Of a stretch of 64,000 bases of DNA, positions 20,057 to 57,752 are shown piece by piece. Below the pieces are notes generated by a model. It did no database searches. It saw only the letters and a list, made by a program, of their open reading frames with translations, and had not been told where the DNA came from. The translations under genes were made by a program, and so were the position numbers. How positions within the stretch are numbered: the stretch's first letter is position 1; the number at the start of each line of letters is the position of its first letter. Origin of the DNA: Escherchia phage Stokescottia; sequence record OR896820.1; one strand, written 5' to 3'.

Positions 20057-20085
20057 TTGCTTTTTACTGTATATATTGGTATAAT
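20057..20085 (+). promoter_or_regulatory. early-type promoter upstream of phoH
   Basis: TTGCTT, 17-nt spacer, TGgTATAAT; A/T-rich upstream. Confidence 0.6.
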
Positions 20086-20158
20086 ATATTTGTAAGTTGA
20101 TAAACAAGATCTTTTTGTTGATCCTCTGTTAGCGAAGTACACTATAGGAGTGTTATTT

Positions 20159-20911
20159 ATGGGAAAAGCACGTCAAAAAAGAGAGAACCGCAATGGTTCA
20201 AGAAAGCGTGGCAACAAATATGAGAACAACGTAATTCAGGCTGATTTTTCTAATGATTACGCTAATCCAGTTGCTAAATCCCTAGTAGGTAAAAACCGCG
20301 AGCAAAAATCATATATCAATATGATCAAGAACAACACAGTGACTGTGGGTATCGGTGAGCCAGGTACTGGTAAAACCTTTATTCCGTCCGTTCTTGCAGC
20401 TCAGGAACTCGTAGACATTCACTCAGATATTGAGCAGGTGATTCTCGTACGTCCTAATGAACCTCTAGGTAAGTCTCTTGGTATGCTTCCTGGTGATCTA
20501 GCAGAAAAGCTAGAGCCTTGGTTAGAGCCAATAGCTGATGGTATGAAATGGGCCATCGGTGATCATGCCTATAAGGGATATGTCGAACGTCAGAAAATTA
20601 AATTTTTGGCTATCGAACATGCTCGTGGCAGAACTTTCAACAACTCCTATGTAATTGTCGATGAAGCTCAGAATATTTCCGTTGAGGCAATGATTTGTCT
20701 CCTAACTCGTGTAGGACAAGACTGCCGTTTAATTATCTGCGGAGATATAGCTCAGAAAGACATTAAAGGTGACTCAGGTCTAGCACTCCTTATGGAAGTC
20801 TATGAGAAATACGAAAATGCCCCATTCTCAATGATCGAATTGATTGATAACGTTCGTTCTGTTGAGTCTAAAGCATTCTATGATATTTTTAAAGACATGG
20901 GGAAGGTGTAA
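20159..20911 (+). CDS. phoH: PhoH-like ATPase
   Basis: Walker A GEPGTGKTF, Walker B VIVDEAQN; AGGAG SD 8 nt before ATG. Confidence 0.85.
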   Translation: MGKARQKRENRNGSRKRGNKYENNVIQADFSNDYANPVAKSLVGKNREQKSYINMIKNNTVTVGIGEPGTGKTFIPSVLAAQELVDIHSDIEQVILVRPNEPLGKSLGMLPGDLAEKLEPWLEPIADGMKWAIGDHAYKGYVERQKIKFLAIEHARGRTFNNSYVIVDEAQNISVEAMICLLTRVGQDCRLIICGDIAQKDIKGDSGLALLMEVYEKYENAPFSMIELIDNVRSVESKAFYDIFKDMGKV

Positions 20912-20912
20912 T

Positions 20913-21155
20913 ATGGGAAACGTCGTTCATCTGAGCCGTAAAACTAAAATACATCGTACTTCACTGAGTGCTGCTAATATGATTACACGTAAGGAAGGGG
21001 AAGAAAGTCCTAAGACAGCCCTAGCGTGGAAAATTGTAACCTCAAATCCAAATAAACCATTCAATTATAACGAGCTGAGCACCTCCATAGATATTCTATT
21101 AAAAGAAGTTGCTAGAGCTAAAGTAATTGAACAAGCTAAAAAGCTAGACTGGTAA
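20913..21155 (+). CDS. hypothetical protein
   Basis: 80-aa ORF starting 2 nt after phoH stop. Confidence 0.4.
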   Translation: MGNVVHLSRKTKIHRTSLSAANMITRKEGEESPKTALAWKIVTSNPNKPFNYNELSTSIDILLKEVARAKVIEQAKKLDW

Positions 21156-21275
21156 TATACAGGCCTGGGTATGAAAATACTCGGGCCTTTTCTATCAGAA
21201 AATTTTATTTGCCTAATGACCGATAATAAAGTAGAATATTCCTTAAATCCTGATAACTATAAAAAGGAAAGCCAA

Positions 21276-23606
21276 ATGAGCCATCGCATTGAAAAAGTAA
21301 TTAAACGTGACGGTACTGTAGAAGACTTTGCTCCTGAAAAACTCAATGGTTGGGCGGAGTATGGTTGCAAAACAGTTGATGTAAGTTGGTCAGCCATTAC
21401 TATGGCTGCTCAAAAAACTCTGCCTAAAGGGGTTGTAGATTCCGACACTCTGATGGATGCATTAATTAAAGCTGCTGAAAGTCTTATTAAAGATAATCCA
21501 GCATATGATGTGCCAGCAAAGGAGTTACGTCTTGCGCAAATGCGTAAACGCCTTTATGATTCTTTCGAACCACCTTCTCTACGCTTCTTCCATGACCATA
21601 TGGTTAGCGTAGGTGCATGGGAAGACATGAGTGCATGGATTACCGATGAACAATTTGAAGCTCTGAATCAGGTTATCGACCATGATCGTGATCGTCTTTT
21701 TACTAGTGGTGGGCTGAAGCAGTTCTTTGATAAATATTCCCGTCGTAACATAGCCACTGGTGAAATTTATGAAACTCCGCAGTTTGCCTACATGGGTATG
21801 GCAATGGCGATGCTATCTCAACCTAACTGGACAATTCTAGATGCAATCGACCTCTACAACGCAATGTCACTCCACAAAATCAACGTTCCTACGCCGCCAT
21901 TGGTTGGTCTGCGCTCTAGTGACCGTGGATTTGCTAGTTGCTGCCTCGTGGATTCCACTGACACGTTGGATTCAATTGACACCGCCGAGCACATCGTCTT
22001 CAAAATGGTCGCAGCCAGAGCGGGAATCGGGTATCATCTTGAAAGCCGATCAATTGCTGATCCGGTGCGAAATGGGGCATTCCCGCATTCCGGAAAACTG
22101 CCATATTATCGACACATTGACCGCTCAGTAAAGGCCAATACTCAGCAAACTCGTGGTGGTTCTGCCACAGTGTCTTATCCATACTTCGACCCTGAAATCA
22201 TTCAATTGATGCAGGTTAAGCAACAACGTGCTACAGATGAGAATAAAATCGATAAGATGGATTATTCCCTGAGCTTTAACAATCTTTTGTTAAAACGTTA
22301 TCTTAAAAACGAAGATATTACGCTAATGTCATACTTCTATGCTCCAGAAGTTCATGAAGCGTTTTATAGTGATGACGAGGCTAAATTTGAAGAAATCTAC
22401 GTGGCAGCGGAGAAACGTGTGGCATCTCTTACAAAAATCGACCATGAAGGAAAAACAGTTCCTGCAGCTCCTAAAGTCTCCGCAAAAGAAATCCTAGATA
22501 CTTGGCTACGTATTCGAATGGAAACAGGACGTATGTACGCTCATCACATCGGGGAATCTAACCGTCACGGTAACTTCCTTGATCCGATCCGTATGACAAA
22601 CCTTTGTGTTGAAATTACTCAGCCTACACGCCCGTTCCATCATATCACGGAACTGTATAAAACAAAAGAACAACTCGATCAAATGAAGCCGGAGGATATT
22701 GGTGAAGTATCTCTGTGTAACTTAGGTGGTGTTGTACTTGGACGCATGGAATCTCTGGCCGAGTGGGAAAAAACCTGCTACATCCTCCTGAAATTCGTTG
22801 ATACAATTATTGAAATTCAGGATTATCCGTTCCCAACTATGGAATATACTGCTAAGAAACGTCGTAATGTTGGTATTGGCCTGATGAACGCAGCAGGTGC
22901 AATGGCAGCAGAAGGTCTGGCTTATGAAGGTATTGAAGCCCGTAACTGGATTCACCGTGAGGCTGAAAAACTGTCTTACTTCCTGCATAAAGCCTCTGTA
23001 CGCCTAGCTAAAGAACAGGGTGCATGTGAGTGGTTTGATCGTACTAAACCATCTAAAGGAATTCTGGTAATCGACACGTACAAGAAAACTGTTGATGAAC
23101 TGGTATCCGTAGGTCTAGAAATGGATTGGGAGTCTCTGCGTGCAGATATTCTGAAATATGGTATGCGTAACTCTGTTCTGACTGCTCAGATGCCGGGAGA
23201 AAGTTCTTCTGTTCTGTTAGGTGTTACTAACTCTATTGAACCGCCTCGTAAGATTGTATCTATCAAAGGTAGTGCAGTAAATAAAGTAATTGCAATTGCT
23301 CCAGGTGCAACCGATTGGGAAACGTTAATGAGCTATAAACTGGCTTATGATGTAGATCGTATCGAGTGGATCAAGTGGGTAGCAACTATGCAGAAATTCT
23401 TCAGTCAGTCTATCAGTACGAATATGTACTATGACTACACCAAGTTTGAGAATGAAATCATTCCTGGCCCAGTAGTAGTTCGTGATTTCATGACTGCTGT
23501 TAAGTATGGGTGGAAAACTTGGTATTATGCTAACTTCAATACCGCAAATGGTGGAGGTGCTGGAGAAGAAGCAGCCGGTTGTGCATCCGGTGGTTGTACT
23601 ATTTAA
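21276..23606 (+). CDS. nrdA: ribonucleotide reductase class Ia large subunit
   Basis: ATP-cone N-terminus VIKRDGTVEDF; catalytic region with CNLG and PGESSS motifs. Confidence 0.9.
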   Translation: MSHRIEKVIKRDGTVEDFAPEKLNGWAEYGCKTVDVSWSAITMAAQKTLPKGVVDSDTLMDALIKAAESLIKDNPAYDVPAKELRLAQMRKRLYDSFEPPSLRFFHDHMVSVGAWEDMSAWITDEQFEALNQVIDHDRDRLFTSGGLKQFFDKYSRRNIATGEIYETPQFAYMGMAMAMLSQPNWTILDAIDLYNAMSLHKINVPTPPLVGLRSSDRGFASCCLVDSTDTLDSIDTAEHIVFKMVAARAGIGYHLESRSIADPVRNGAFPHSGKLPYYRHIDRSVKANTQQTRGGSATVSYPYFDPEIIQLMQVKQQRATDENKIDKMDYSLSFNNLLLKRYLKNEDITLMSYFYAPEVHEAFYSDDEAKFEEIYVAAEKRVASLTKIDHEGKTVPAAPKVSAKEILDTWLRIRMETGRMYAHHIGESNRHGNFLDPIRMTNLCVEITQPTRPFHHITELYKTKEQLDQMKPEDIGEVSLCNLGGVVLGRMESLAEWEKTCYILLKFVDTIIEIQDYPFPTMEYTAKKRRNVGIGLMNAAGAMAAEGLAYEGIEARNWIHREAEKLSYFLHKASVRLAKEQGACEWFDRTKPSKGILVIDTYKKTVDELVSVGLEMDWESLRADILKYGMRNSVLTAQMPGESSSVLLGVTNSIEPPRKIVSIKGSAVNKVIAIAPGATDWETLMSYKLAYDVDRIEWIKWVATMQKFFSQSISTNMYYDYTKFENEIIPGPVVVRDFMTAVKYGWKTWYYANFNTANGGGAGEEAAGCASGGCTI

Positions 23607-23614: not shown

Positions 23615-23641
23615 AGGAGATCTTCGGGTCTCCTTTTTCTT
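23615..23641 (+). terminator. terminator-like hairpin after nrdA
   Basis: GGAGATC TTCG GGTCTCC followed by TTTTTCTTT. Confidence 0.55.
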
Positions 23642-23652
23642 TGAAATTTTAC

Positions 23653-23681
23653 TTGCTAATCGCTACCAGATTTGCTATAAT
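23653..23681 (+). promoter_or_regulatory. early-type promoter upstream of nrdB
   Basis: TTGCTA, 17-nt spacer, TATAAT. Confidence 0.55.
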
Positions 23682-23712
23682 ATTCCTGAAATAGTGAGAA
23701 AGAGGAAAATCA

Positions 23713-26605: not shown

Positions 26606-26630
26606 TAGCCCTTCGGGGCTATTATATTTA
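26606..26630 (+). terminator. terminator-like hairpin
   Basis: AGCCC TTCG GGGCT followed by a T-rich run. Confidence 0.5.
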
Positions 26631-26638
26631 AATTTCAT

Positions 26639-26667
26639 TTGCTTATTTAGTGAAATTTAAATATAAT
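26639..26667 (+). promoter_or_regulatory. early-type promoter
   Basis: TTGCTT, 17-nt spacer, TATAAT, then TTTATAAATTGGAGG box. Confidence 0.55.
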
Positions 26668-26692
26668 ATATTTTATAAATTGGAGGTATATA

Positions 26693-27450: not shown

Positions 27451-27470
27451 TAAATAAATTAAAAATTTTC

Positions 27471-27499
27471 TTGCTTAAAGCCCTCTAATTTAGTATAAT
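27471..27499 (+). promoter_or_regulatory. early-type promoter
   Basis: TTGCTT, 17-nt spacer, TATAAT. Confidence 0.55.
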
Positions 27500-27526
27500 A
27501 TTCATATTGAAAGTGAGGAGGGCTTT

Positions 27527-27811: not shown

Positions 27812-28257
27812 AGATTACTGAATTTAAAGGTACTTATAGTTTCTTATCAAACTTTTATTTATCACCAATTACTTTCGAATATCTAAATGAAATATGGCAT
27901 GCTGATACTGTAGAACATGCTTTTCAGGCTATGAAATCCGACCAAAAAGATGATGTAGCTCATGTACTGCGCTCCCTAAATGCAGGAGTTGCCAAACGTA
28001 GAGGACGTAAATTAACTCTACGCTCTGACTGGGATAAGGTAAAAGATGATGTAATGCTAGAGCTTTTACGGTTAAAGTTTGCAATCCCTGATTTGAGAGA
28101 CAAACTGTTAGCAACAAAAAATGCAACTTTGATCGAAGGAAATACCTGGGGAGATACATATTGGGGTGTTTGCCGAGGCATTGGGGATAATACTCTAGGT
28201 GTTCTTTTGATGCAGGTAAGGTCTGAAATTAAAAGAAGCTTACAGTTAATAAATTAA
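27808..28257 (+). CDS. NADAR-domain protein (YbiA-like)
   Basis: 149 aa; FLSNFY...EHAFQAMK...W...DTYWG pattern typical of YbiA/NADAR. Confidence 0.75.
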   Translation: MKITEFKGTYSFLSNFYLSPITFEYLNEIWHADTVEHAFQAMKSDQKDDVAHVLRSLNAGVAKRRGRKLTLRSDWDKVKDDVMLELLRLKFAIPDLRDKLLATKNATLIEGNTWGDTYWGVCRGIGDNTLGVLLMQVRSEIKRSLQLIN

Positions 28258-28265
28258 AAATTCAT

Positions 28266-28294
28266 TTGCTAAACGCTTCAAATTCTCGTATAAT
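28266..28294 (+). promoter_or_regulatory. early-type promoter
   Basis: TTGCTA, 17-nt spacer, TATAAT, then CATAAATTGATAAAC box. Confidence 0.6.
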
Positions 28295-28332
28295 ATACTT
28301 CATAAATTGATAAACAAAAAGGAAAACAAATA

Positions 28333-29419: not shown

Positions 29420-30121
29420 ATGAAAGTAAAACCATTTGGTATGCTAGATATTGAATCTCTAGGAACTCCAGGAGATTGTGGTACTACTCATATCGCAATG
29501 CCTTCTTTCGCTTTTGTGGCTATGCATGGAATTGATAAAGACCCTGATCTAGTATTTGTTACTTTGGATGTGCAAGATCAACTTAATTCTGGTGCCAAAG
29601 TCACAGCATCTACTCTAGCATTCTGGATGGATCAAGCTAAAAATAGTCCGTCTGCTATCCACATTATGGAAGCTATGAAGGAACGTAATCCAAAACTGAT
29701 TGCCTTCCAAAATGGTAAACATCATTGCACTAATAAATTAGGCTCAAACTATGCTGCCTTCTCTATGGCTCAAAATATTATGGAGTTGGCTCTAGGCGAA
29801 AATGCTTTGTATTATGGCAATGGCCCAGAGTTTGATATGACTATCTACTCTGCAAATACGTTCCATGCTGGAACCAATGAAGAGGTAGTTCCGTGGAAAT
29901 TCTGGAATTTGGGCAATGTTCGATCTCTTCGTAATCTCTGGATGCAAGCTGGATACAGTTATAAAGCTCTAGAGACCGAAGGTATTAGCTGGGCAATAGC
30001 TAAAATGGAGAAGATGGACACTATTCGTTATGGGATCTATCCAGTTAAGCACGACCCAGCATTCGATGCCTTAGTTGAGAGCTATTGTGTTGCAGCTATG
30101 ATCGAAAAAATGAAAATTTGA
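29420..30121 (+). CDS. putative DnaQ-like 3'-5' exonuclease (DEDDh)
   Basis: 233 aa; Exo I-like MLDIESLG and Exo III-like HDPAFDALV. Confidence 0.5.
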   Translation: MKVKPFGMLDIESLGTPGDCGTTHIAMPSFAFVAMHGIDKDPDLVFVTLDVQDQLNSGAKVTASTLAFWMDQAKNSPSAIHIMEAMKERNPKLIAFQNGKHHCTNKLGSNYAAFSMAQNIMELALGENALYYGNGPEFDMTIYSANTFHAGTNEEVVPWKFWNLGNVRSLRNLWMQAGYSYKALETEGISWAIAKMEKMDTIRYGIYPVKHDPAFDALVESYCVAAMIEKMKI

Positions 30122-30122
30122 T

Positions 30123-30151
30123 TTGCTTCCGGCTCCAAAATTCTGTATAAT
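30123..30151 (+). promoter_or_regulatory. early-type promoter
   Basis: TTGCTT, 17-nt spacer, TGTATAAT, then CATAAATTTGAGAAAAC box. Confidence 0.6.
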
Positions 30152-30191
30152 ATATTCATAAATTTGAGAAAACAATAAAAGGAAAACAAAT

Positions 30192-31066: not shown

Positions 31067-31448
31067 TAATTTAAAAGCTAGTAAATCGGTAGACGAAAGC
31101 CCAAGCATCTTACCTCGCAGCAGCGGTTGAAATACGAGGTTAAATAAGACCGCTGACCATACTATAAAGTATAATCTATTGGAGATTATGTTTATTACAC
31201 CAGCCTTTTAAGCTGACACGTAAGAACAAAGCGTCGTTGATATTACCGACACAACTTCAAAGATCAACATTTAAGTATGAAAGCTGAAAAGTTTAAAGAA
31301 CTCAAACTTCTAAACTTCTAAAGCTAAAAGATGCAAAGTATTCGTTGATGATTCAAACCCTAGATCAAAGGTACATGGCTCATAAGATATGGCCTGTGGC
31401 GCCTCTAGGCTGTTTATCGGTTTACTAGTTTCACAATTTAAAAATGTA

Positions 31449-31478
31449 TTTGCTAATTTACTAAGTTATCTGTATAAT
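31449..31478 (+). promoter_or_regulatory. early-type promoter
   Basis: TTGCTA, 18-nt spacer, TGTATAAT. Confidence 0.55.
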
Positions 31479-31508
31479 ATATTTTTAAATTGATGAAACG
31501 AGGCTATT

Positions 31509-31831: not shown

Positions 31832-32281
31832 ATGAAGGCAGCTTTGCTTTTAGTAGCTGCCCTTACCTTCAGCTTTAGTAGTCAGGCATCGCACGATGCA
31901 AGAGAAATAGATTGCATTGCTAAAAATATCTATTTCGAAAGTCGTGGTGAGGGCATAAAGGGAATGACGGCGATTGCACATGTTACTAAAAACCGTGTAA
32001 ACTCCGGTAAATTCCCAGATTCCTACTGTAAAGTAGTATATCAGTCTAACCAGTTCTCTTGGGTATCTAAGAGACCAAAAGTTGATAAAACTGATGAGGC
32101 TTGGCAAACCGCTAAGAATTTAGCTAGAGTGATATACTACGTTGATTTACCACAAGATCCTACACATGGAGCACTATACTTCCACAGTGGTAAAGATAAA
32201 CCTTACTGGACAAAGAAGTTTAAGAAAACAACTAAGATTAAGGGACATACGTTTTATAAACCTGTTGTCACTAAAACTTAA
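31832..32281 (+). CDS. SleB-like cell wall hydrolase with signal peptide
   Basis: N-terminal signal MKAALLLVAALTFSFSSQA; hydrolase-like NIYFESRGE...HVTKNRV...QFSWV. Confidence 0.6.
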   Translation: MKAALLLVAALTFSFSSQASHDAREIDCIAKNIYFESRGEGIKGMTAIAHVTKNRVNSGKFPDSYCKVVYQSNQFSWVSKRPKVDKTDEAWQTAKNLARVIYYVDLPQDPTHGALYFHSGKDKPYWTKKFKKTTKIKGHTFYKPVVTKT

Positions 32282-32289
32282 AAATTTAC

Positions 32290-32318
32290 TTGCTTAAATA
32301 CTTAAATTTCCGTATAAT
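32290..32318 (+). promoter_or_regulatory. early-type promoter
   Basis: TTGCTT, 17-nt spacer, TATAAT, then CATAAATTAATGAGAGG box. Confidence 0.6.
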
Positions 32319-32349
32319 ACTTCCATAAATTAATGAGAGGAAGCGAAAT

Positions 32350-32520: not shown

Positions 32521-32963
32521 TGGAAGAGAATATTTTAGATGTTTTGCGTAGAGCTTTGCAGGATTCTAAGTTTAATGGTTCTGATAAAGAAGTCGCCAAA
32601 AGCTATCAGACCATAATTGGGGATCTTCAGCGTATTGATAAAGATTTCATCACTTCTGAACAATTTGTGTCTTATCTCAAAGCTCAACTAAAAAGCATTA
32701 ACCAGATGAAAGCTAAACTTCATGGTCAAGATCTCGATAGTTATAGCCTACAGTCTGCTCAGTATGAATACATTCTAAATAAGTGGTTGCAGGAGTATCT
32801 GCCCCCTCAGTTATCTGATACTGAGATTCGTAAATACTTTGCAGAATTAGTTAAGCTAAACCCTGGAATTACAAAGGGTATGCTGATGAAAGCGATTAAG
32901 GAAGAATTTCCTGGGCGTTATGATGGTGGTACTGCTGCTCAGATTGCTGGCGAATTTAATTAA
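32520..32963 (+). CDS. GatB/YqeY-domain-like protein
   Basis: 147 aa; C-terminal ...KGMLMKAIKEEFPGRYDGGTAAQIAGEF resembles YqeY. Confidence 0.4.
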   Translation: MEENILDVLRRALQDSKFNGSDKEVAKSYQTIIGDLQRIDKDFITSEQFVSYLKAQLKSINQMKAKLHGQDLDSYSLQSAQYEYILNKWLQEYLPPQLSDTEIRKYFAELVKLNPGITKGMLMKAIKEEFPGRYDGGTAAQIAGEFN

Positions 32964-32971
32964 AAATTCAT

Positions 32972-33000
32972 TTGCTAAATGCTTATAAATTCTGTATAAT
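32972..33000 (+). promoter_or_regulatory. early-type promoter reading into a non-coding region
   Basis: TTGCTA, 17-nt spacer, TGTATAAT; no ORF follows for ~900 nt. Confidence 0.6.
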
Positions 33001-33224
33001 ATATTCATAAATTAGGGAACAGCGAGCCGATTACGCTGAGTGCAGAATCCCAACCGGAGCGCATTGAATAGAGTCGGTGGGTTAGTTGTAAAACTAGTAC
33101 ACAGGGGGCGGCAATTCCGGTTAGTGGCTAGAACGTGTAAAATGAGGCGTCTGAAACCTCTCCCCTAAACTCTTCTCTAATTTATAAATAGTGGGGTGTG
33201 GAAATCACTTATGTAGTAACACTG

Positions 33225-33295
33225 CCGTCCTAGTATAATTGGTATTATCAAGCCGTAACTGGTGGAAGATGTAGGTTCGAATCCTACGGTCGGTA
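33225..33295 (+). ncRNA. degenerate tRNA-like element
   Basis: Canonical T-arm GTAGG TTCGAAT CCTAC but no canonical acceptor or anticodon stems. Confidence 0.25.
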
Positions 33296-33797
33296 AGAAC
33301 TGGATAACTGGTGCTTTTAACGTAAAAGCTTCCGAGGTTAGTTGCGCACTGCCTAAACCACGCGGTAGTTGGTTCCAGACTAACCAACCAGTCTGCTGAA
33401 TAGTTTTATTACGATTTAACTATGTCCAGGCTAAAGAAGAACTTTAGAAGGTATTCTAGGATAGTGAAGTTCTTTCTCCATATCGGAGTAGTTTTTCAAG
33501 CTATCCACAAAGTGGGAAATGCTGACATGAGAGATGTCACTAATGGTGCACAATAGCACAGGTAATTCGCGATAATTCCTGTTGAGTAGCAGCAAAAGGC
33601 GGGAAGTCATGACCCCAAGCCTAACCGAGTCCTCAATATACCGCAGGACATAACCACTAAGTCACCCTGACTTAAACTGGAAAATAATAGACGTTACCGT
33701 ATTTTGTCTTGAAATACTTAATGAGTGGGACTTATGACTCTCCCGGTATCGTCTGTATTTTTAAGAGTTTTTACGAGAGTTCTTAAAAATACTTAAA

Positions 33798-36605: not shown

Positions 36606-36812
36606 TTTTTGACACCTCCTAGTATATAGAAAATGTGTGTCTCTTTGATCACTCATCCATAACATATACTTTACACTACCCCAGCGAAAATGTCAAGGGG
36701 TCTTTAAAAATTGCCCCTGGATTTTTAGTGGGGTCACAAATTTTGGTCCTCACCACTTATCTGCTACCCTTAAGTGCCCTATGATTTTCCTCTAAAAAGT
36801 TAAAAAATTTGA

Positions 36813-36841
36813 TTGCTTGAATGCTAAATTCTCTGTATAAT
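36813..36841 (+). promoter_or_regulatory. early-type promoter
   Basis: TTGCTT, 17-nt spacer, TGTATAAT, then CTATAAATTTGAGAGAGG box. Confidence 0.6.
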
Positions 36842-36871
36842 ATATCTATAAATTTGAGAGAGGAACCAAAT

Positions 36872-37390
36872 ATGAATGTTGATGAGCTAACACAGCACCT
36901 CTTATCTAGAGGATTTGATACAGATAAATATCATTGCTGGTTAAGTCCGGAAGGGTGGCTAACAGTCCCGTTGTATGATTTCTCTGGAATGTTGAGGGGC
37001 TATCAAACTTATAATCCTTCTGCTCCAAAAGGTCATGGTAAGTGCCCCTTTGAAGCTAAATACTTTACTTATTCTACTACACAGTGTGTATGGGGACTAG
37101 AAACTCTCAATGGGGATGAAAAAGTAGTATTGATTGCTGAATCTGTATTTAAGGCAGTTGCATTACATAATGCTGGTTATCCAGCCCTAGCAATGTTAGG
37201 TTCTTCTCCAGGAAAAGCGTTATTAAAGCAACTGAAATTACTACCCTTTAAATTGGTAGCTGTCGGGGATAATGATCCTGCGGGTGAAAAATTTGCTAGA
37301 AAATTAAACGGCTTTGTTTCTCCCGTAGATGTGGATGAGATGTCTACCGAAAACTTGAAAAATTTTCTTGCTATGAAGCTAAATTTCTAA
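36872..37390 (+). CDS. Toprim-domain protein
   Basis: 173 aa; Glu in LIAESVF and DxD in VGDNDPAG suggest a Toprim fold. Confidence 0.45.
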   Translation: MNVDELTQHLLSRGFDTDKYHCWLSPEGWLTVPLYDFSGMLRGYQTYNPSAPKGHGKCPFEAKYFTYSTTQCVWGLETLNGDEKVVLIAESVFKAVALHNAGYPALAMLGSSPGKALLKQLKLLPFKLVAVGDNDPAGEKFARKLNGFVSPVDVDEMSTENLKNFLAMKLNF

Positions 37391-37396
37391 TATAAT
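37367..37396 (+). promoter_or_regulatory. early-type promoter driving the tRNA island
   Basis: TTGCTA, 18-nt spacer, TATAAT; overlaps the 3' end of the Toprim ORF; tRNA-Ser begins ~16 nt after the -10. Confidence 0.55.
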
Positions 37397-37411
37397 ATAT
37401 CTTATAAATTC

Positions 37412-37500
37412 GGAAGAATAGCATAACGGTATTGCAGCAGATTGCTAATCTGTCGGTTTGAAATATAGCCTTGTGGGTTCGATTCCCACTTCTTCCGCCA
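37412..37500 (+). tRNA. tRNA-Ser(GCT)
   Basis: Acceptor GGAAGAA/TTCTTCC, anticodon loop TTGCTAA, long variable arm, encoded CCA. Confidence 0.7.
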
Positions 37501-38545: not shown

Positions 38546-38575
38546 CTCCTCCAAACAGAATTTTTAAAAATGTAC

Positions 38576-38605
38576 TTGCCTTTTGCTTTAAATTTCTGGT
38601 ATAAT
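38576..38605 (+). promoter_or_regulatory. early-type promoter
   Basis: TTGCCT, 18-nt spacer, TGgTATAAT, then TATAAATTGATGAAGGAG box. Confidence 0.55.
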
Positions 38606-38635
38606 AATTATATAAATTGATGAAGGAGTTAACTA

Positions 38636-38911: not shown

Positions 38912-38947
38912 CTAATACAGCATTGGGCAAGTTCTTTAAAATTTGAC

Positions 38948-38976
38948 TTGCCCAATACTATAAAACTTGATATAAT
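38948..38976 (+). promoter_or_regulatory. early-type promoter overlapping a hairpin
   Basis: TTGCCC, 17-nt spacer, TGaTATAAT; -35 lies in the inverted repeat TTGGGCAAG...CTTGCCCAA. Confidence 0.45.
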
Positions 38977-39042
38977 ATTTATCTAATTTGGAAACATATT
39001 TAAAAGTGTTTAAATGAGAATTTTTTGAATACTTCTAAATAT

Positions 39043-39390: not shown

Positions 39391-39663
39391 ATGCATCCTG
39401 AAAACTTCTTTATTTACTGCGCGGATAAGTCGCTGAAACGTAGAATTAACAAAGTCTATCATTATCGTGCTAGTCAACAGCCTTATGTATATGCTTTTGA
39501 CGGTGATCACATTCCCCTAGAACAATTATCTTGTGATTACATGATATTGAAGAACTTTGACGAGACGAAGATCTCAAGCGTTCATAATCGACAGAATCCA
39601 TTAACGTGGAAATATAAGAAGAAAAAGAAAGGCATCAAATTCTTAAAAAATGTAGTTGCTTAG
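39391..39663 (+). CDS. hypothetical protein
   Basis: 90-aa ORF starting at the first ATG after tRNA-Phe. Confidence 0.4.
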   Translation: MHPENFFIYCADKSLKRRINKVYHYRASQQPYVYAFDGDHIPLEQLSCDYMILKNFDETKISSVHNRQNPLTWKYKKKKKGIKFLKNVVA

Positions 39664-39684
39664 TTTCCAAAAGTTCTGTATAAT
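39656..39684 (+). promoter_or_regulatory. early-type promoter
   Basis: TTGCTT, 17-nt spacer, TGTATAAT, then CATAAATTGAACTGGAG box. Confidence 0.6.
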
Positions 39685-39713
39685 AATTACATAAATTGAA
39701 CTGGAGAAGCAAC

Positions 39714-41171: not shown

Positions 41172-41563
41172 TAAAATTTCAGTGCAGAACACGGAGCTAG
41201 CAATTCGGAAGTGCTGACTCATGATAAGCTGCCTATGTACTTGCGAAGCGGTCGTGTCCAAGACTCGGACTCTTGCACTGAAAACAATCAAACATTCTAG
41301 CGTGGTTGATGGGGAAACCAGCTTGGCGAGGGCAGAAGCTCGTTCGATTCGAGTGAAAGAATGGTTCTCGTAAGTCCGCACAAGTGATAACAGGTTCGAG
41401 TCCTGTCTAGAATGACACTATAAAGTTTACTTATTATGTAGGTTCCGGTAGATCGGCGGGTCTATTCTGGCATTTAAGAGAGGTCTCGCAAACTTCTTTG
41501 TCAGCCGTGGGGTTGGTAGCCTCCAGGCGGCCTACACAATAAGTAAATTTATTAAAAATTCAT

Positions 41564-41592
41564 TTGCTATTCTGCTTAATTCTCTGTATAAT
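41564..41592 (+). promoter_or_regulatory. early-type promoter
   Basis: TTGCTA, 17-nt spacer, TGTATAAT. Confidence 0.6.
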
Positions 41593-41624
41593 ATATTTTA
41601 TAAAGTGAAGAGAAGGAAAGCAAA

Positions 41625-42217: not shown

Positions 42218-42236
42218 ATTTCAAGAAAAAACGCAG

Positions 42237-42265
42237 TTGCTTGATGCTTAATTTCTTGTTATAAT
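42237..42265 (+). promoter_or_regulatory. early-type promoter with long RNA leader
   Basis: TTGCTT, 17-nt spacer, TGTTATAAT, then TATAAATTGATGAGGAG box; no ORF before tRNA-Ala. Confidence 0.6.
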
Positions 42266-42503
42266 ATTTATATAAATTGATGAGGAGAAATCCTCATCAT
42301 AGTTCACTAAGGTATTAGCTCGACCTAGGACTGGCTGCCAAAAAGCACGATCCCCATGATTCGGGAGAAGTTCTAGATTGGTCCACTAGATTCAGCGGCA
42401 ACTGAATAGTGTATTGGGTTTGCGAGATGACGCAGTTCCTTCCGCTCGAAGCGAAGGTGCTGTAGTTACGCCGAGCTAATAGCCTTAGTAAACTAAAGAA
42501 TTT

Positions 42504-44956: not shown

Positions 44957-45124
44957 ATGTTTAAACTGTTAGTAGTTATCTGGTATAGTCAATCAAATAG
45001 AGCGAATACCTCCCACGTTATAGACTTTAATACTAAAAATGAAGCTGAAAAAGCATATGCTAATTTAATAGAACGTAATAAAGAATCTCGTAGTATAGTT
45101 TATGAAGTGACTAAACTTTATTAA
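44957..45124 (+). CDS. hypothetical protein
   Basis: 55-aa ORF from the first ATG after the tRNA. Confidence 0.3.
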   Translation: MFKLLVVIWYSQSNRANTSHVIDFNTKNEAEKAYANLIERNKESRSIVYEVTKLY

Positions 45125-45131
45125 AAATTCA

Positions 45132-45160
45132 TTTGCTTTCTCTCTTATTTCTTGTTATAA
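45132..45160 (+). promoter_or_regulatory. early-type promoter
   Basis: TTGCTT, 17-nt spacer, TGTTATAAT, then TATAAATTAATGAGAGGG box. Confidence 0.6.
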
Positions 45161-45191
45161 TACTTGTATAAATTAATGAGAGGGAAACCAA

Positions 45192-47449: not shown

Positions 47450-47466
47450 ATTCTGAAATAATTCAT

Positions 47467-47495
47467 TTGCTAAACCTCTCTTTTCTTGCTATAAT
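47467..47495 (+). promoter_or_regulatory. early-type promoter
   Basis: TTGCTA, 17-nt spacer, TATAAT, then TATAAATTGATGAGAGAGG box. Confidence 0.6.
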
Positions 47496-47525
47496 ATGTT
47501 TATAAATTGATGAGAGAGGTTTGAA

Positions 47526-49042: not shown

Positions 49043-49152
49043 AGAACTCGCGTAGGACCGAGTTGCGTCACCTGCAACTGTTACGGATAAGGGAGTCGTG
49101 CCCCTTAGTGCGGTAAGTGGTGAGGTGGCTGCTAGCCCTAACTGGAGATAAT

Positions 49153-49497
49153 ATGACTATATTACTAATTCTTGTTACAACTTGGTTTTTAATCGGTGCT
49201 GGATATGCGATAGCTATTATTAGACATTTGGACGAATATTCTGCTGAATGGTTTATTAAGTATCTACGTATTGATGATCAAGAACAGAAGTTTAAAGATG
49301 AAAAGCAGAAAAAAGCAGTAAATAATATGACAGCCAAAGAATGCTTGTTCTACATGCGTATTGTAGGGTTCTTTGGACTATTAGTTGCTGGCCCAATTGG
49401 TTCTACCATTGCTCCGTATAAAGAAACAGTTGCTGACATCAAATTGTGGAGAAATGCAGGGGTACTGCGTAAAGCTAGAGAAACTAATATTACATAA
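49153..49497 (+). CDS. hypothetical membrane protein
   Basis: 114 aa; hydrophobic segments TILLILVTTWFLIGAGYAIAII and IVGFFGLLVAGPIG. Confidence 0.4.
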   Translation: MTILLILVTTWFLIGAGYAIAIIRHLDEYSAEWFIKYLRIDDQEQKFKDEKQKKAVNNMTAKECLFYMRIVGFFGLLVAGPIGSTIAPYKETVADIKLWRNAGVLRKARETNIT

Positions 49498-49540
49498 GAT
49501 TGATACTAAATCAACTTACTAGCAAAAGCAAATAATGACA

Positions 49541-49578
49541 AAGCCCAGCTTGCACTTTTGCGACTGGGCTATTTTTAT
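49541..49578 (+). terminator. terminator-like hairpin
   Basis: GCCCAG...CTGGGC stem followed by TATTTTTAT. Confidence 0.45.
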
Positions 49579-49591
49579 AATAAAATTTTAG

Positions 49592-49620
49592 TTGCTTAGA
49601 TGCCCAAACTTTTGTATAAT
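49592..49620 (+). promoter_or_regulatory. early-type promoter
   Basis: TTGCTT, 17-nt spacer, TGTATAAT. Confidence 0.6.
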
Positions 49621-49651
49621 ATGTTTATAGATTGAGGCAAGAGGATTAAAT

Positions 49652-50350
49652 ATGAGGATTATTTCTAAGTTCGCCGATGTGTATGATTTGCAGAACAGTT
49701 TGTTCGACCCAGATCGTGTGTGGGAACGTAAAACTGAGGAGTTACTGGTTAAAGTAACCGATGATGCAGAAAAGAACATTGTGCATACTCGCCAGGTATT
49801 TCGTGATGGTTCGCTATCTTTCCGTGGTGATTTCGAATACTTCGTAAACCCCCTATTTGTTGCAGGTGAAGTTTACTGGTTACACGAGCTGTACTGCTGG
49901 CATCCAGCATTTAGCTTCAAAACGTTTAATCTCGACACTATGTTTGATAAAATGGAAGAGATGGGATTACATGCTCGCTCTTACTTAATGGATAAGAGTC
50001 GTGGAGATGTTCGTGAAACAATGCGTGATCTACTAGCTGAAGCAAAACCTAAAGCAGAACGTATCTTATCCGAACTGCGTGTACCGATTGCATATGTGAA
50101 AGGTATTAAAAAGAACGATAACGATGATGTTCGTAACTTCGTAATTCAGACTAACATTCGTTTCCATCAGTCCGGTATTCCGTGGCAGGAAATTGAAAGC
50201 AACTTATACCGTTTACACCAAGTTCTCGAACAGTATATCTTCGGTGTACTAGGAACTGGTGAGCCTGATATGATTAAAGTATCAGATAAAGACAGGTTAG
50301 CAGCGCATGGATTTGATACAAAAACTTCTTTCAGGAATATGGCGCGGTAA
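49652..50350 (+). CDS. hypothetical protein
   Basis: 232-aa ORF. Confidence 0.5.
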   Translation: MRIISKFADVYDLQNSLFDPDRVWERKTEELLVKVTDDAEKNIVHTRQVFRDGSLSFRGDFEYFVNPLFVAGEVYWLHELYCWHPAFSFKTFNLDTMFDKMEEMGLHARSYLMDKSRGDVRETMRDLLAEAKPKAERILSELRVPIAYVKGIKKNDNDDVRNFVIQTNIRFHQSGIPWQEIESNLYRLHQVLEQYIFGVLGTGEPDMIKVSDKDRLAAHGFDTKTSFRNMAR

Positions 50351-50756
50351 GTGGTATATCCTGGGAGCAGGTCTAGCGATAGGCATCGGGTTCGGTGCTT
50401 ATCACCTAATAAATAAAGTGGAGACTTTGGCAGGAGATCTTGCGGTAGCTACTAAAAAGATCTCTTCTCTAGAGACTTCCCTTAACAAGGTGAAAGCTGA
50501 GAGTGAACTTCGTGAGACTCGTATGAATCAGTATTTCACAATGAATAATGTTTCCCAAGCAGATCTAGATAAGAAAATTAGTCAGCTTGATAAAGCACTT
50601 AGTCGTCAAGACATTATAGCTGCAAAGCCTAGATTGGTAACATTAATTGCTAAAAAGCAGAGTAAGGAGTTCGAGGAAAGATTAGCATGTTTAACTGGAA
50701 ACTTGGAATACTGCTCGCAGCCGCAATCACAATCACAGGCTGTGCACAAGAAATAA
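50307..50756 (+). CDS. hypothetical membrane-anchored coiled-coil protein
   Basis: 149 aa; N-terminal TM followed by heptad-like region; start uncertain. Confidence 0.4.
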   Translation: MDLIQKLLSGIWRGKWYILGAGLAIGIGFGAYHLINKVETLAGDLAVATKKISSLETSLNKVKAESELRETRMNQYFTMNNVSQADLDKKISQLDKALSRQDIIAAKPRLVTLIAKKQSKEFEERLACLTGNLEYCSQPQSQSQAVHKK

Positions 50757-51040
50757 AGACAGAATCTACACATGAGCTACCAACAGCTCATGTAGACTGG
50801 CCCAAAGGACTTCAACCTTGTAGCTTTGACTTTAAGTTTGAAAAGAAATTAGCTACAAATGGAGAAGATGGCGTAGTAGTTGTTGTACCATATAAAGACT
50901 GGAATATGTTGGCAAAATGCCGTGAGGCAGAATATTCCTATATTTCACGACTGACTGGTATGGTTTGCTTCTATCGCCAAGATTTACAAGAAAAACGTTG
51001 CTTAGTTTACTATCCACCAATTAACAATAGGAAAGATTAA
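50687..51040 (+). CDS. putative lipoprotein
   Basis: Signal peptide with lipobox MFNWKLGILLAAAITITGC. Confidence 0.45.
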   Translation: MFNWKLGILLAAAITITGCAQEIKTESTHELPTAHVDWPKGLQPCSFDFKFEKKLATNGEDGVVVVVPYKDWNMLAKCREAEYSYISRLTGMVCFYRQDLQEKRCLVYYPPINNRKD

Positions 51041-51792
51041 TGTCAGTATTAGTCGGTTTACATGGTGAAGCTGGTTCGGGAAAAGATACTGTTGCAAAAT
51101 TAATTATCGATTGGTGTAATGACACGTATCCAACGTGTTTACCCCGTCGTTACAGTTTTGCTAAGCCCGTTTATGAACTTGCATCCGTAATCCTCGGTGT
51201 AACTCCAGAGTTTCTAGGAGAGCGCAGGGGAAAAGAGGTTGACCAATGGTTTACAGTCACACAATCTCAATTGGAGCGAGCCAGAGATGTGTGGTTTAAG
51301 TACGGTATCGATAAGTTTGAAGACTTCTCGTACGTTTGGCCTATTTTTGAGGAAAAATATCTTAATCCTCAACAACTTATCTCAGAGAATAAAGAAGACG
51401 GACTTTATAGTTTATTTATTTCTCCGAGAAAAATGTTACAGCTCGTAGGGACAGAGCTAGGAAGGCAGCTGGTGCATGAACGCATTTGGCTCATAATTCT
51501 GGAGCAATCCATCGCTAAAGACGACCCAGATGTCGCCGTAATAACAGATGTTAGATTCCCCAATGAAGGAGAGCTACTCAGAGAAACAAACCATTTAGAT
51601 ATGGATTCTTTGATAGTAAATGTAGTACCCGCTGAGCAGAAGTTCACTATTAAATCAGATCATCCATCTGAAAGTGGTATTCCTGCAAAATATATTACTC
51701 ACGAATTAGTTAATAAATTCGATGGTATCAATAACCTTAAACTAGAAGTTTATAACTTCTGTGACTTAGAGCTAGAACCACTAGTTGGATAA
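51040..51792 (+). CDS. dnk: deoxynucleoside monophosphate kinase
   Basis: 250 aa; P-loop LHGEAGSGKDT at N-terminus. Confidence 0.65.
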   Translation: MSVLVGLHGEAGSGKDTVAKLIIDWCNDTYPTCLPRRYSFAKPVYELASVILGVTPEFLGERRGKEVDQWFTVTQSQLERARDVWFKYGIDKFEDFSYVWPIFEEKYLNPQQLISENKEDGLYSLFISPRKMLQLVGTELGRQLVHERIWLIILEQSIAKDDPDVAVITDVRFPNEGELLRETNHLDMDSLIVNVVPAEQKFTIKSDHPSESGIPAKYITHELVNKFDGINNLKLEVYNFCDLELEPLVG

Positions 51793-51804
51793 TCAAGGAT
51801 CGCT

Positions 51805-52404
51805 ATGACTAATAAAAAAGAAGAAAAGACTAACCTGTTTCACTCCATTCGCCAATCTAACGAGTATACCTTTTTCTTTGATGAAGAATTAGGGCCGCCG
51901 GATGAATACCGTGATTTATCAATGGTACTTATGCAGGCAAATGAGGACGACGAAATTAATTTGATGATTAATGGCCCGGGTGGTTATGTTGATACTGCTG
52001 CACAGTTATCTAACTTAATTGCTAATTGCCGTGGAACAGTTATAGGACATCTGATTGGTCCTAGTGCTTCTGCTTACTGCACAATTTTCCTATCCTGTCA
52101 TGGATGGGTAGTACATCCACATGCTACGCTAATGGGACACACGTTCTCTGGCGGGTTCTGTGAGAAAGGTCAAGAAATCAAGAAAGCCTATGAATCTTAC
52201 AACAAGTTCGTAGAAGATATGATGCTAGATGTCTACTATCCATTCTTCTCAATAGATGAAATCGACGAGATGGTAAAAGACAACAAAAATATCTATCTAG
52301 ATAGCAAAGAAATCCATAAGCGTATTGAAATCTTGGCAAAATATCGATCTGAGCAATATAATAAAGCCCAGTTACCTCAATTCGAGGAGCACAACGAAGA
52401 GTAA
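51805..52404 (+). CDS. ClpP-like serine peptidase
   Basis: 199 aa; MINGPGGYV...GPSASAYCTIFL...HPHATLMGHTFSGG matches the ClpP core pattern. Confidence 0.6.
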   Translation: MTNKKEEKTNLFHSIRQSNEYTFFFDEELGPPDEYRDLSMVLMQANEDDEINLMINGPGGYVDTAAQLSNLIANCRGTVIGHLIGPSASAYCTIFLSCHGWVVHPHATLMGHTFSGGFCEKGQEIKKAYESYNKFVEDMMLDVYYPFFSIDEIDEMVKDNKNIYLDSKEIHKRIEILAKYRSEQYNKAQLPQFEEHNEE

Positions 52405-54094: not shown

Positions 54095-54134
54095 GAAAAG
54101 ATTTATACATGTAGTAGATTAAGATAAAAAAGTA

Positions 54135-54164
54135 GTTGACTTTTAGTCCTAGTTATTATATAAT
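54135..54164 (+). promoter_or_regulatory. early-type promoter
   Basis: TTGACT, 18-nt spacer, TATAAT, then CATAAATTAGTTAAGAGAGG box. Confidence 0.55.
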
Positions 54165-54197
54165 ATATACATAAATTAGTTAAGAGAGGTATATATT

Positions 54198-54918: not shown

Positions 54919-54951
54919 AAGCCTGATCTTAGCTGATCAGGCTTTTATTTT
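54919..54951 (+). terminator. rho-independent terminator
   Basis: AAGCCTGATC...GATCAGGCTT hairpin followed by TTATTTT. Confidence 0.65.
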
Positions 54952-54953
54952 AC

Positions 54954-54982
54954 TTGCTTTTTGCTAAAAATTTTGGTATAAT
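54954..54982 (+). promoter_or_regulatory. early-type promoter
   Basis: TTGCTT, 17-nt spacer, TGgTATAAT, then TATAAATTGATGAGAG box. Confidence 0.6.
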
Positions 54983-55091
54983 ACTTATATAAATTGATGA
55001 GAGACATTAATATGATTATGTCACATATCTTTGTATGGATTTTAGTCATATTAATGGCTTTCTTTGTCCTTCAAGAAATAGGAGTATTACG

Positions 55092-55469
55092 ATGAACTAT
55101 GCATATCTTATTATTAATAATAATGTAGTTTGTGGTACTCGCGCCGTTGAGATGGGTATTACAGAAGAAAAGTATAAGTCACTTCCAGAAAAGGAACAAC
55201 AATATTATGTTGAAGAAGCTGCTTGGGAATATGCTGATGTTTATCCCGAACAACGTGAAGATCGCATTACTATTGTTGTTTCTTTGGGGTTGGTTGGCTG
55301 TGATACCGAAGTTGATACAGACCTAGAGACTTTAGAAGAATGGGGAGAATTAGACATTTTAGCTAAAAACTCTTTAATCCGTGAGGCTTTTTGGGAAGCA
55401 GTTGACTGCCATGTTGTCTTTGAGCCTAACGATGAGGAAGCTGAGAAGCATACTAATCACTGGAGATAA
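55092..55469 (+). CDS. hypothetical protein
   Basis: 125-aa acidic ORF. Confidence 0.4.
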   Translation: MNYAYLIINNNVVCGTRAVEMGITEEKYKSLPEKEQQYYVEEAAWEYADVYPEQREDRITIVVSLGLVGCDTEVDTDLETLEEWGELDILAKNSLIREAFWEAVDCHVVFEPNDEEAEKHTNHWR

Positions 55470-57106: not shown

Positions 57107-57214
57107 GTATATAGCTGAGGCTATTATTAAACGAATCATACAAGCGATAGCAATACTTACAATCATTTGTATTGCTATTGGCACAGGATTAGGCATTTTA
57201 ATTAAAAGTTTTAT

Positions 57215-57243
57215 TTGCTAAAATGCTTAAGTTTCTGTATAAT
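57215..57243 (+). promoter_or_regulatory. early-type promoter
   Basis: TTGCTA, 17-nt spacer, TGTATAAT, then TATAAATTGATGAGAAGG box. Confidence 0.6.
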
Positions 57244-57273
57244 TACTTTATAAATTGATGAGAAGGAATCAAA

Positions 57274-57705
57274 ATGAACAAAGTTGATAAAGCTCTAGTT
57301 TTCGCAGCAGCAGATAAGTTTGAACAAGTTAAGGCAACTTTCCGAACCTTGTTCCAGTCTTACGTTCAAGATAAGTCTAATCCTATCTCTGAACGTTTGA
57401 TGGTCTGGGAGTGTCATGCTTGCAATGCCCTATTAATTGCGGATTATCGTAGTGATATAGATAAAGATCTGTGCGAAATTCTTATCGCTGAGGAGGCAGA
57501 ACGTTATCAGTTAATCTCTTTCCAAGATTTGGCGGAGCATATCATTCCTGATGATCTTTGGGATAAATACTATGGTGATCCTGAAGATGAAGGAATGACT
57601 CCAGAAGCCTGTATTGAGCTAATCTGCAAAAATCATCCTGAAATTGCAGAGAAATTTGAAAAAGTTTTTGCTTCTGAGTTCTCCGGAGTTGTTAACGATT
57701 GGTAA
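57274..57705 (+). CDS. hypothetical protein
   Basis: 143-aa ORF. Confidence 0.45.
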   Translation: MNKVDKALVFAAADKFEQVKATFRTLFQSYVQDKSNPISERLMVWECHACNALLIADYRSDIDKDLCEILIAEEAERYQLISFQDLAEHIIPDDLWDKYYGDPEDEGMTPEACIELICKNHPEIAEKFEKVFASEFSGVVNDW

Positions 57706-57723
57706 GTAATTAAAAAAATTCAG

Positions 57724-57752
57724 TTGCTTTAAGCCTTAAAATTCTGTATAAT
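57724..57752 (+). promoter_or_regulatory. early-type promoter
   Basis: TTGCTT, 17-nt spacer, TGTATAAT, then CATAAATTAATGAGAGAGG box. Confidence 0.6.

Follow-up and report, generated by a model that had tools for sequence, protein, structure and literature searches.

The 64,000-nt stretch of phage Stokescottia DNA analyzed here (OR896820.1; the whole stretch is called the window below) carries a family of 31 putative early promoters that share a conserved transcribed box, ATAAATT followed by a purine run. GC skew and the layout of the open reading frames (ORFs) divide the window into three blocks: a minus-strand block (1 to 19.9 kb), a plus-strand block (19.9 to 62 kb), and a short minus-strand island (34.9 to 36.7 kb). 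ARAGORN placed 21 tRNA genes at 33.8 to 45.9 kb, and Rfam added two tRNA-like genes. A megablast search with positions 44000 to 52000 matched 486 phage records, the best of them Salmonella and Escherichia T5-like phages with ~97% identity. A chain of blastn hits aligned the window collinearly, in inverted orientation, with phage T5 (AY543070), from ~72 kb down to ~10 kb of the T5 genome and at 84 to 97% identity. Judging from these alignments, the window is the early (second-step-transfer) region of a phage of the Tequintavirus/Epseptimavirus type (Demerecviridae).

The pattern TTGCT-N{16,19}-TATAAT occurred 25 times in the window, against 0.41 ± 0.59 occurrences expected from shuffled sequences. 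Twenty of these exact matches lie on the plus strand, between 20057 and 57724, and five on the minus strand (3260, 7263, 8710, 9927, and 17889); a 17-bp spacer is common to 24 of the 25. A scan with a three-module position weight matrix (PWM), run against a Markov null (at most 0.1 null hits per window at a core score of at least 14; 0.1 to 0.4 overall), added the sites 10953 (−), 14495 (−), 19916, 38576, 38948, and 54136. The family thereby reaches 31 sites, 24 on the plus strand and 7 on the minus strand. Site 54136 has a core score of only 12.3, yet it shows an exact box and an annotated T5 ortholog. All 31 sites point the same way as the local genes, and their density corresponds to about one promoter per short operon, or one per 2 kb, not to one cassette for each small gene as proposed in the initial annotation. 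That annotation had also described about 25 near-identical copies, all in the plus-strand range 20057 to 57752. The family is real and its 20 exact plus-strand matches fall in this range, but 7 further members lie outside it on the minus strand, and the copies share their functional elements while being only 55% identical as paralogs. A scan of 20 to 40 kb for the generic sigma-70 consensus found 46 sites, where shuffled sequences gave 54, and thus no enrichment, so that only the family-specific motif is informative.

Alignment of the window sites revealed information above background in six places: an A-rich, UP-like block upstream of the −35 element (consensus TTAAAAATTcAT, 0.9 to 1.4 bits per position), the −35 element, the 3′ half of the spacer, the −10 element, the discriminator, and ATAAATT with its purine run. 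Past about +20, the information content drops to zero or background. The −10 element is an exact TATAAT in 31/31 sites. The −35 element is an exact TTGCT in 25 of the 31, the remaining six having TTGCA, TTGCC, or TTGAC; 28 sites have a 17-bp spacer, and the other 3 an 18-bp one. The discriminator, with the consensus AT(A/T)T(T/C)N, begins with A in 28 sites and reads exactly ATATT in 7. ATAAATT lies 5 to 8 nt (mostly 6) past TATAAT; it is exact in 20/31 sites and has at most one mismatch in 24/31. The 18-mer ATAAATTGATGAGAGAGG, which covers the whole box, has one exact copy in the window, at 47502, and 7 copies when up to 3 mismatches are allowed, against 0.07 expected. The spacing first suggested for the module (a 17- to 18-nt spacer, TATAAT, about 6 nt, the box, and then a start codon) agrees with these values for the promoter itself, the start codon following at 19 of the 31 sites.

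The T5 record AY543070 annotates 75-bp promoter features throughout the corresponding region, among them P-N25, P-N26, P-K28a/b, P-H207, P-D/E33, P16-17, P15a-c, P14a/b, P13a/b, P12, P11, P10a, and P-F30, together with stable RNAs (RNAX, RNA2H, and others). When extracted, these T5 features showed the same module, box included. In an ungapped comparison, the syntenic annotated T5 promoter was the clear best match for 29 of the 31 window sites, with identities of 0.66 to 1.00 (mostly at least 0.86), whereas the second-best T5 promoter reached 0.49 to 0.76. Promoter 14495 stands at the syntenic place of T5 58999, yet the ungapped comparison gives it another best match; promoter 26639 occupies the place of T5 46937 in a diverged region, and T5 46937 is not its best match. 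At promoter 23653, the homology to T5 ends exactly past the −10 element, where T5 has an HNH endonuclease gene.

In vitro transcription served to identify the T5 promoters, and of the 19 tested in infected cells, 11 were detected by primer extension, along with 4 new ones; all T5 early promoters have an ATATT discriminator and an UP element (Klimuk et al. 2020). In P-N25, the sequence TATAATAGATTCAT spans −12 to +2 (Klimuk et al. 2020), so that +1 corresponds to the first A of ATAAATT. The window family shows an N25-like conserved transcribed region (ATAAATTTGAGAGAGGAG) starting at this A. With the T5 early promoters it also shares the UP block, TTGCTa, the 17-bp spacing, TATAAT, the ATATT-type discriminator, and ATAAATT(T)GAGAGAGG from +1, as well as genomic positions (29/31 syntenic) and the downstream tRNAs and stable RNAs. 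It differs from them in that some downstream genes have been swapped and in that the −35 element of the N25 ortholog is TTGCAT. High strength and early use are properties established for T5 itself and predicted for the promoters of the window. Judged by synteny and identity, at least 29 of the 31 sites are orthologs of the classical, already annotated T5 early promoter family, and their detection is a rediscovery. The literature on that family reportedly includes the work of Gentz and Bujard in 1985 and of Kammerer and colleagues in 1986.

The box is a composite, in which a start-of-transcript element is fused to a ribosome-binding site. Position +1 is A in 24 of the 31 sites, and each position of TAAATT (+2 to +7) is held in 26 to 30 of them. 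The following purine run at +8 to +18, (GA)TGAGAGAGG, is nearly free of pyrimidines over the 31 sites, except for a T at +10; the purine fraction of +1 to +20 is 0.71, compared with a coding-strand background of 0.53. At 19/31 sites a start codon follows 22 to 27 nt past the inferred +1, with GAGG 5 to 9 nt before it, and by this placement the 3′ part of the box evidently supplies the Shine-Dalgarno (SD) sequence. Of 20 promoter-proximal ribosome-binding sites, 8 contain GAGAG, whereas all 71 internal ones lack it (Fisher test; P = 1.5e−6), the internal genes using GGAG/AGGA.

The 5′ part of the box was also found where no translation follows. At promoter 37368 (P15b), tRNA-Ser begins at +9, so that only +1 to +8 (AUAAAUUC) are left of the box. 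Promoter 32972 (P16-17) keeps ATAAATT before an RNAX-like leader, a tRNA-like element, and tRNA-Arg. Promoter 42237 (P13b) has the complete box, whose GAUGAGG is base-paired to CCUCAUC within the hairpin at the 5′ end of a 232-nt RNA that precedes tRNA-Ala; this hairpin of the RNA2H-like RNA is built from the box itself (UUGAUGAGG / CCUCAUCA), and the SD-like GAGGAG is buried in it. Rfam found only tRNAs in the window and assigned neither the box nor the leaders to a described RNA family. Since GAGAG is restricted to promoter-proximal sites and the 5′ part is kept where nothing is translated, the box is more than an SD sequence. A generic SD with nothing conserved outside its core does not describe it either, since conservation spans +1 to +18 and persists before tRNAs. 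The initial annotation had taken the sites for early promoters whose box provides both the transcript start and the SD, and had pointed to 32972, 37367 (37368 here), and 42237 as places where the box could not serve translation. This interpretation is supported, including the three non-coding cases and the role beyond translation, to which a tRNA promoter of a Vibrio phage can be added; what had to be amended is that the box has two parts, of which only +1 to +8 remain at tRNA-Ser.

Homologs of the T5 protein D5, encoded in ~900 phage records, mark the relatives of the window phage (77% amino acid identity in Klebsiella phages, 55% in Proteus, 54% in Aeromonas, and 48 to 51% in Vibrio phages). 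We scanned Demerecviridae of Klebsiella, Proteus, and Vibrio, leaving out Seabear, EPS7, and the Aeromonas phage, and chose sites only by an A/T-rich upstream block and TTGNNN-17-TATAAT. These sites showed a TTGC(T/A/C)A −35 element, an AT-T-type discriminator, and a start reading ATAAATTGA, ATAAAGTTGAG, or ATAGTTTGAAAG, and the UP-like upstream block was the same in T5 and the three other genera. The mean information in the relatives was 0.5 to 1.0 bit per position over +1 to +9 and 0.06 to 0.16 past +18. The purine/SD half was strongest in T5-like and Klebsiella phages and looser in Proteus phages. In Vibrio phage River4, one promoter has ATAAAGTTGAGAAT before a tRNA-Cys that starts at +20. 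The conservation across Demerecviridae of Klebsiella, Proteus, and Vibrio points to a strong constraint on the architecture. A pattern scan of IMG/VR gave a hint only: among the matches listed, most were contigs of 103 to 128 kb with several matches each. The two T5 late promoters examined, PG25 and PJ5, have TTGATA/TTGACA as −35 elements and lack ATAAATT, which is also missing from the TTGAC/TTGAA-type promoters of the T5 early region (P12, K28b, nrdD, holin, and 13212). As separate observations, position 31257 of River4 carries an exact T5-type box (ATAAATTGATGAGAGAGG), though no DNA homology is detectable between the genomes, and the P12 ortholog of the window (36696-36668, minus strand) reads TTGACA-17-TAAAGT and has no box.

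Taken together, we consider it probable (about 85%) that the sites are promoters of the early class in a T5-like phage, used by the host sigma-70 polymerase, with the box acting both in initiation and escape and as SD. Such a cassette would begin with an A-rich block resembling an UP element (about −46 to −38), followed by the family-specific −35 element TTGCT(A/T) and a 17-bp spacer whose 3′ half is rich in A/T. Next would come a perfect TATAAT, then a discriminator of the A/T-rich ATATT type, with transcription starting at the first A of ATAAATT. Positions +1 to +8 (ATAAATTN) would constitute the initial transcribed sequence (ITS), acting on DNA and polymerase during initiation and promoter escape, and the purine run at +8 to +18 would continue this escape-favoring transcribed sequence. 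Where a gene follows, the same run would also give the GAGG core of the SD and a standard 5′ untranslated region (5′UTR) of 22 to 27 nt. The motif statistics, the anatomy, the T5 orthology, the absence of the box from the two late promoters, and its retention before tRNAs come from the present analysis, while the sigma-70 dependence, the position of +1, and the ~10-fold effect of the N25 transcribed region are taken from the literature. According to the passages of Hsu & Han 2025 and Heyduk & Heyduk that report the work of Kammerer et al., replacing this region by a pyrimidine-rich sequence made productive RNA ~10-fold lower. Escape is the limiting step at N25; the native sequence transcribed from this promoter is tuned for that step, and richness in purines is important (Hsu & Han 2025, Heyduk & Heyduk). 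Like N25 and its variants, the window family has a purine-rich +1 to +20 (0.71) behind a promoter of the very tightly binding type; unlike the subject of those escape studies, its sequence is conserved between genera and among ~30 promoters of a single genome and doubles as a ribosome-binding site. The start of T7 A1, AUCGAGAGGG, is another ITS that sets escape. By analogy with T5, we infer that all copies work in the window phage and do so in the manner of N25.

Some points weigh against this assignment. The +1 assignments follow from alignment of the box, and those at sites with a gap of 5, 7, or 8 nt behind the −10 element are less certain. Several members (19916, 23653, 27471, and 38948) have degenerate boxes, and the functional dissection of the transcribed region is confined to N25. 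Moreover, TAAATT at +2 to +7 is itself −10-like (TAnnnT occurs in 27/31 sites), and −10-like elements in the initial transcribed region were reported to slow escape (Hsu & Han 2025, Heyduk & Heyduk). Given this resemblance and the escape-limited nature of N25, a description of the box as optimized for escape may be incomplete.

The same resemblance could be read differently, with sigma-70 holding the polymerase at TAAATT in a promoter-proximal pause near +17, of the lambda PR′ type, that could allow the loading of an elongation or antitermination factor and read-through of the numerous terminators that separate the cassettes. The frequency of TAnnnT and the reported effects on escape of −10-like sequences within +2 to +10 (Hsu & Han 2025, Heyduk & Heyduk) would agree with such a pause, as would a 61-aa zinc-ribbon ORF in the tRNA region (37800-37985, plus strand) that bears the PHROG 6060 label “anti-termination protein Q-like.” We consider this very improbable, since the positions +2 to +7 are all about equally conserved, without prominence of the diagnostic A and T, and the literature cited here reports no pause for T5 early promoters. 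It is improbable, too, that the box acts at the RNA level, either as a standard 5′ leader (an A/U-rich enhancer plus SD) or as a determinant of mRNA stability or processing, with transcription irrelevant to its conservation. The 19 sites with a well-placed start codon and GAGG and the A/U-rich 5′ end ahead of the SD are what such a leader would look like. Nevertheless, ATAAATT is kept in an 8-nt leader that is cut off the tRNA precursor (37368) and before the stable RNAs (32972 and 42237), and the Vibrio phage has ATAAAGTTGAGAAT before a tRNA starting at +20. The 71 internal genes without GAGAG are translated from GGAG/AGGA, and the SD-like part of the RNA2H-like RNA is hidden in its hairpin.

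Two further proposals concern the family as a whole. The class signature (the non-consensus TTGCTA as −35 element, the ATATT discriminator, and ATAAATTGA at +1 to +9) might be mainly a code by which a phage factor, the RNA polymerase-binding gpT5.026 or the DNA-binding D5, silences the early promoters together, and not an optimization of kinetics for the host polymerase. If so, all ~30 or more of them would be shut down jointly at the early-to-late switch. Early and late T5 promoters differ in exactly the elements of the signature, and gpT5.026 weakens polymerase binding to N25 −5/+2, its loss raising early and lowering late transcripts (Klimuk et al. 2020). Homologs of T5.026 (59336-59797) and D5 (5674-6441) are present in the window, and the signature is found together with D5 in phages from Escherichia to Vibrio (the Vibrio D5 being 48% identical). 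Against the Sigma70_r4_2 helix-turn-helix of Pfam, the D5 homolog scores 28.7 bits, above the cutoff of 25.7 (residues 204 to 230), but this match is short (27 residues) and of a promiscuous type, which makes it a weak lead; a comparison with solved structures found no relative of the protein. The in vitro effects of gpT5.026 were twofold or less (Klimuk et al. 2020), and N25 is very strong with the host polymerase alone, which already explains most elements. A phage-read code appears unlikely and is put forward tentatively. The cassettes might also be mobile or recombinogenic modules that spread and recombine, shuffling small early genes, like the promoter/stem-loop cassettes (PeSLs) of T4-type phages (Arbiol et al. 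2010, PMC2839356; Comeau et al. 2014, PMC4122927). Both have many strong early sigma-70 promoters between small early ORFs, some with an upstream terminator hairpin and with variable genes adjoining. Homology breakpoints relative to T5 and Spc35 fall in cassettes in 18 of 75 cases, against 5.4% expected (P = 7e−8), and cluster within them at +9 to +14 and −46 to −59; a terminator hairpin abuts 6 of the 31 promoters upstream, and lineage-specific ORFs lie directly behind promoters 8710, 26639, and 54954. However, within non-coding DNA the cassettes hold 11 of 29 breakpoints for a share of 27% (P = 0.14), so that, unlike for T4-type PeSLs, an excess of junctions over other non-coding DNA could not be shown, and many of the indels are HNH endonuclease genes. 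Because this enrichment disappears against non-coding DNA, the PeSL interpretation, which we hold to be highly improbable, was not adopted. The stem-loop is also largely missing here, with a terminator-like hairpin at most 20 nt upstream in only 6/31 cassettes, and the copies appear too unlike each other (55%) for homologous exchange; each retains its identity with its T5 ortholog, which argues against recent homogenization. Over 71 nt, paralogous cassettes agree on average at 55% of positions (at most 76%), and outside the core elements at 40%; the longest exact run that two of them have in common measures 9 nt at the median and never exceeds 27 nt, while each shares its own spacer and flanks with its T5 counterpart. 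As far as these alignments tell, the similarity of the family is kept element by element and not by recent copying. Recent duplication and concerted evolution were ruled out, orthologs being far closer than paralogs.

Table. Predicted early promoters and associated RNAs of the window. Promoter coordinates run from the UP block to +18, +1 is inferred, and T5 numbers are promoter features of AY543070.
Feature	Coordinates	Strand	+1	T5 ortholog	Detection	Remarks
Early promoter, site 3260	3207..3274	−	3224	70987-71061, DNA polymerase promoter	exact pattern	identity 1.00; ITS GTAAGTT
Early promoter, site 7263	7211..7277	−	7228	P-K28a	exact pattern	drives ligB; 24-nt 5′UTR
Early promoter, site 8710	8658..8724	−	8675	65284	exact pattern	terminator hairpin just upstream; downstream, a 90-aa ORF without T5 counterpart, then ligA
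Early promoter, site 9927	9875..9941	−	9892	P-N26	exact pattern	ITS ATAGTTTGAAAG
Early promoter, site 10953	10901..10967	−	10918	P-N25	PWM	identical from −12 to +21; −35 TTGCAT
Early promoter, site 14495	14442..14509	−	14459		PWM	TTGCAA; 18-bp spacer
Early promoter, site 17889	17837..17903	−	17854	55708	exact pattern	abuts upstream terminator
Promoter-like, site 19916	19902..19968	+		53776	PWM	TTGCCA-17-TATAAT without box; tandem, upstream of 20057
Early promoter, site 20057	20043..20109	+	20092	53638	exact pattern	ITS GTAAGTT; drives phoH-like gene
Early promoter, site 23653	23639..23704	+	~23687	50061	exact pattern	terminator upstream
Early promoter, site 26639	26625..26692	+	26675		exact pattern	terminator upstream
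Early promoter, site 27471	27457..27525	+		46337	exact pattern	degenerate box TGAAAGTGAGGAGG
Early promoter	28252..28319	+	28302	P-H207	exact pattern	
Early promoter	30109..30175	+	30158	44393	exact pattern	
Early promoter	31436..31502	+	31485	43067	exact pattern	
Early promoter	32276..32342	+	32325	P-D/E33	exact pattern	
Early promoter, site 32972	32958..33024	+	33007	P16-17	exact pattern	drives non-coding leader
RNAX-like untranslated transcript	33007..33797	+				tRNA-like element 33224-33295 inside; ends at tRNA-Arg 33798-33872
Early promoter	36799..36865	+	36848	P15a	exact pattern	back-to-back with box-less P12 ortholog (−)
Early promoter, site 37368	37354..37421	+	37404	P15b	exact pattern	tRNA-Ser from +9; box is ATAAATTC only
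Early promoter, site 38576	38562..38629	+	38612	P15c	PWM	TTGCCT; 18-bp spacer
Early promoter, site 38948	38934..39000	+		P14a	PWM	TTGCCC; degenerate ITS CTAATTT; tRNA-Tyr from +62
Early promoter	39642..39708	+	39691	P14b	exact pattern	
Early promoter	41550..41617	+	41600	P13a	exact pattern	
Early promoter, site 42237	42223..42289	+	42272	P13b	exact pattern	
RNA2H-like structured non-coding RNA	42272..42503	+				232 nt; upstream of tRNA-Ala; minimum free energy −85.7 kcal/mol, z = −5.97
Early promoter	45119..45185	+	45168	P11	exact pattern	
Early promoter	47453..47519	+	47502	26722	exact pattern	sole exact copy of the 18-nt box
Early promoter	49578..49644	+	49627	24443	exact pattern	
Early promoter, site 54136	54122..54188	+	54171	19368	PWM	−35 TTGACT; exact ATAAATT
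Early promoter, site 54954	54940..55006	+	54989	18550	exact pattern	abuts terminator
Early promoter	57201..57267	+	57250	P-F30	exact pattern	
Early promoter, site 57724	57710..57776	+	57759	16245	exact pattern	

Other features of the window were recorded beside the promoters. The D5 homolog is encoded on the minus strand (5674-6441), and T5 depends on this DNA-binding protein to shut off early and to carry out late transcription. The ~410 nt from promoter 14495 to the gene of the origin-binding protein (14046-14459, minus strand) contain no SD-preceded ORF, and T5 has a similar gap; this segment could be a leader RNA or origin-related DNA. Behind promoter 54954, a hydrophobic 27-aa mini-ORF (55011-55094, plus strand) overlaps a 125-aa ORF (55093-55469) by ATGA, and the 470-bp insert at 55011-55469 that comprises both is missing from T5. 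The two tRNA-like genes found by Rfam and not reported by ARAGORN (33224-33295 and 37506-37580, plus strand; 35.5 and 40.3 bits in the order listed) lie inside the RNAX-like leader and at the place of T5 tRNA-Ile2(CAU), respectively. On the same strand, tRNA-Thr (44856-44942, 87 nt) and tRNA-Asn (40341-40423, 83 nt) are long for their types, the T5 tRNA-Thr having 75 nt. The tRNA-Val and tRNA-Gly of T5 are missing in the window, which has an additional tRNA-Leu(UAA). For the zinc-ribbon ORF at 37800-37985, the label of a Q-like antiterminator was rejected, as the searches matched the ORF to neither a Pfam Q family nor a solved structure. The large presence/absence differences relative to T5 mostly concern HNH homing-endonuclease genes present in T5 and absent from the window, and differences lie at 4119, 11192, 23683, 37603-38158, 42625-43249, 48092-48454, and 50341.

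The feature described here is already known, since the sequencing and dissection of the T5 early promoters date from the 1980s and the T5 GenBank record annotates them; they are the basis of the widely used T5/N25 expression promoters and of a model system for promoter escape. What is added is a complete map of 31 orthologous promoters in the window phage and a natural dissection of the box, with ATAAATT standing before tRNAs and stable RNAs and GAGAG being exclusive to promoter-proximal ribosome-binding sites. In addition, the whole architecture, including its transcribed part, appears conserved in the Demerecviridae of Klebsiella, Proteus, and Vibrio. This cross-genus conservation could guide work on how early transcription is switched off in T5-like phages.

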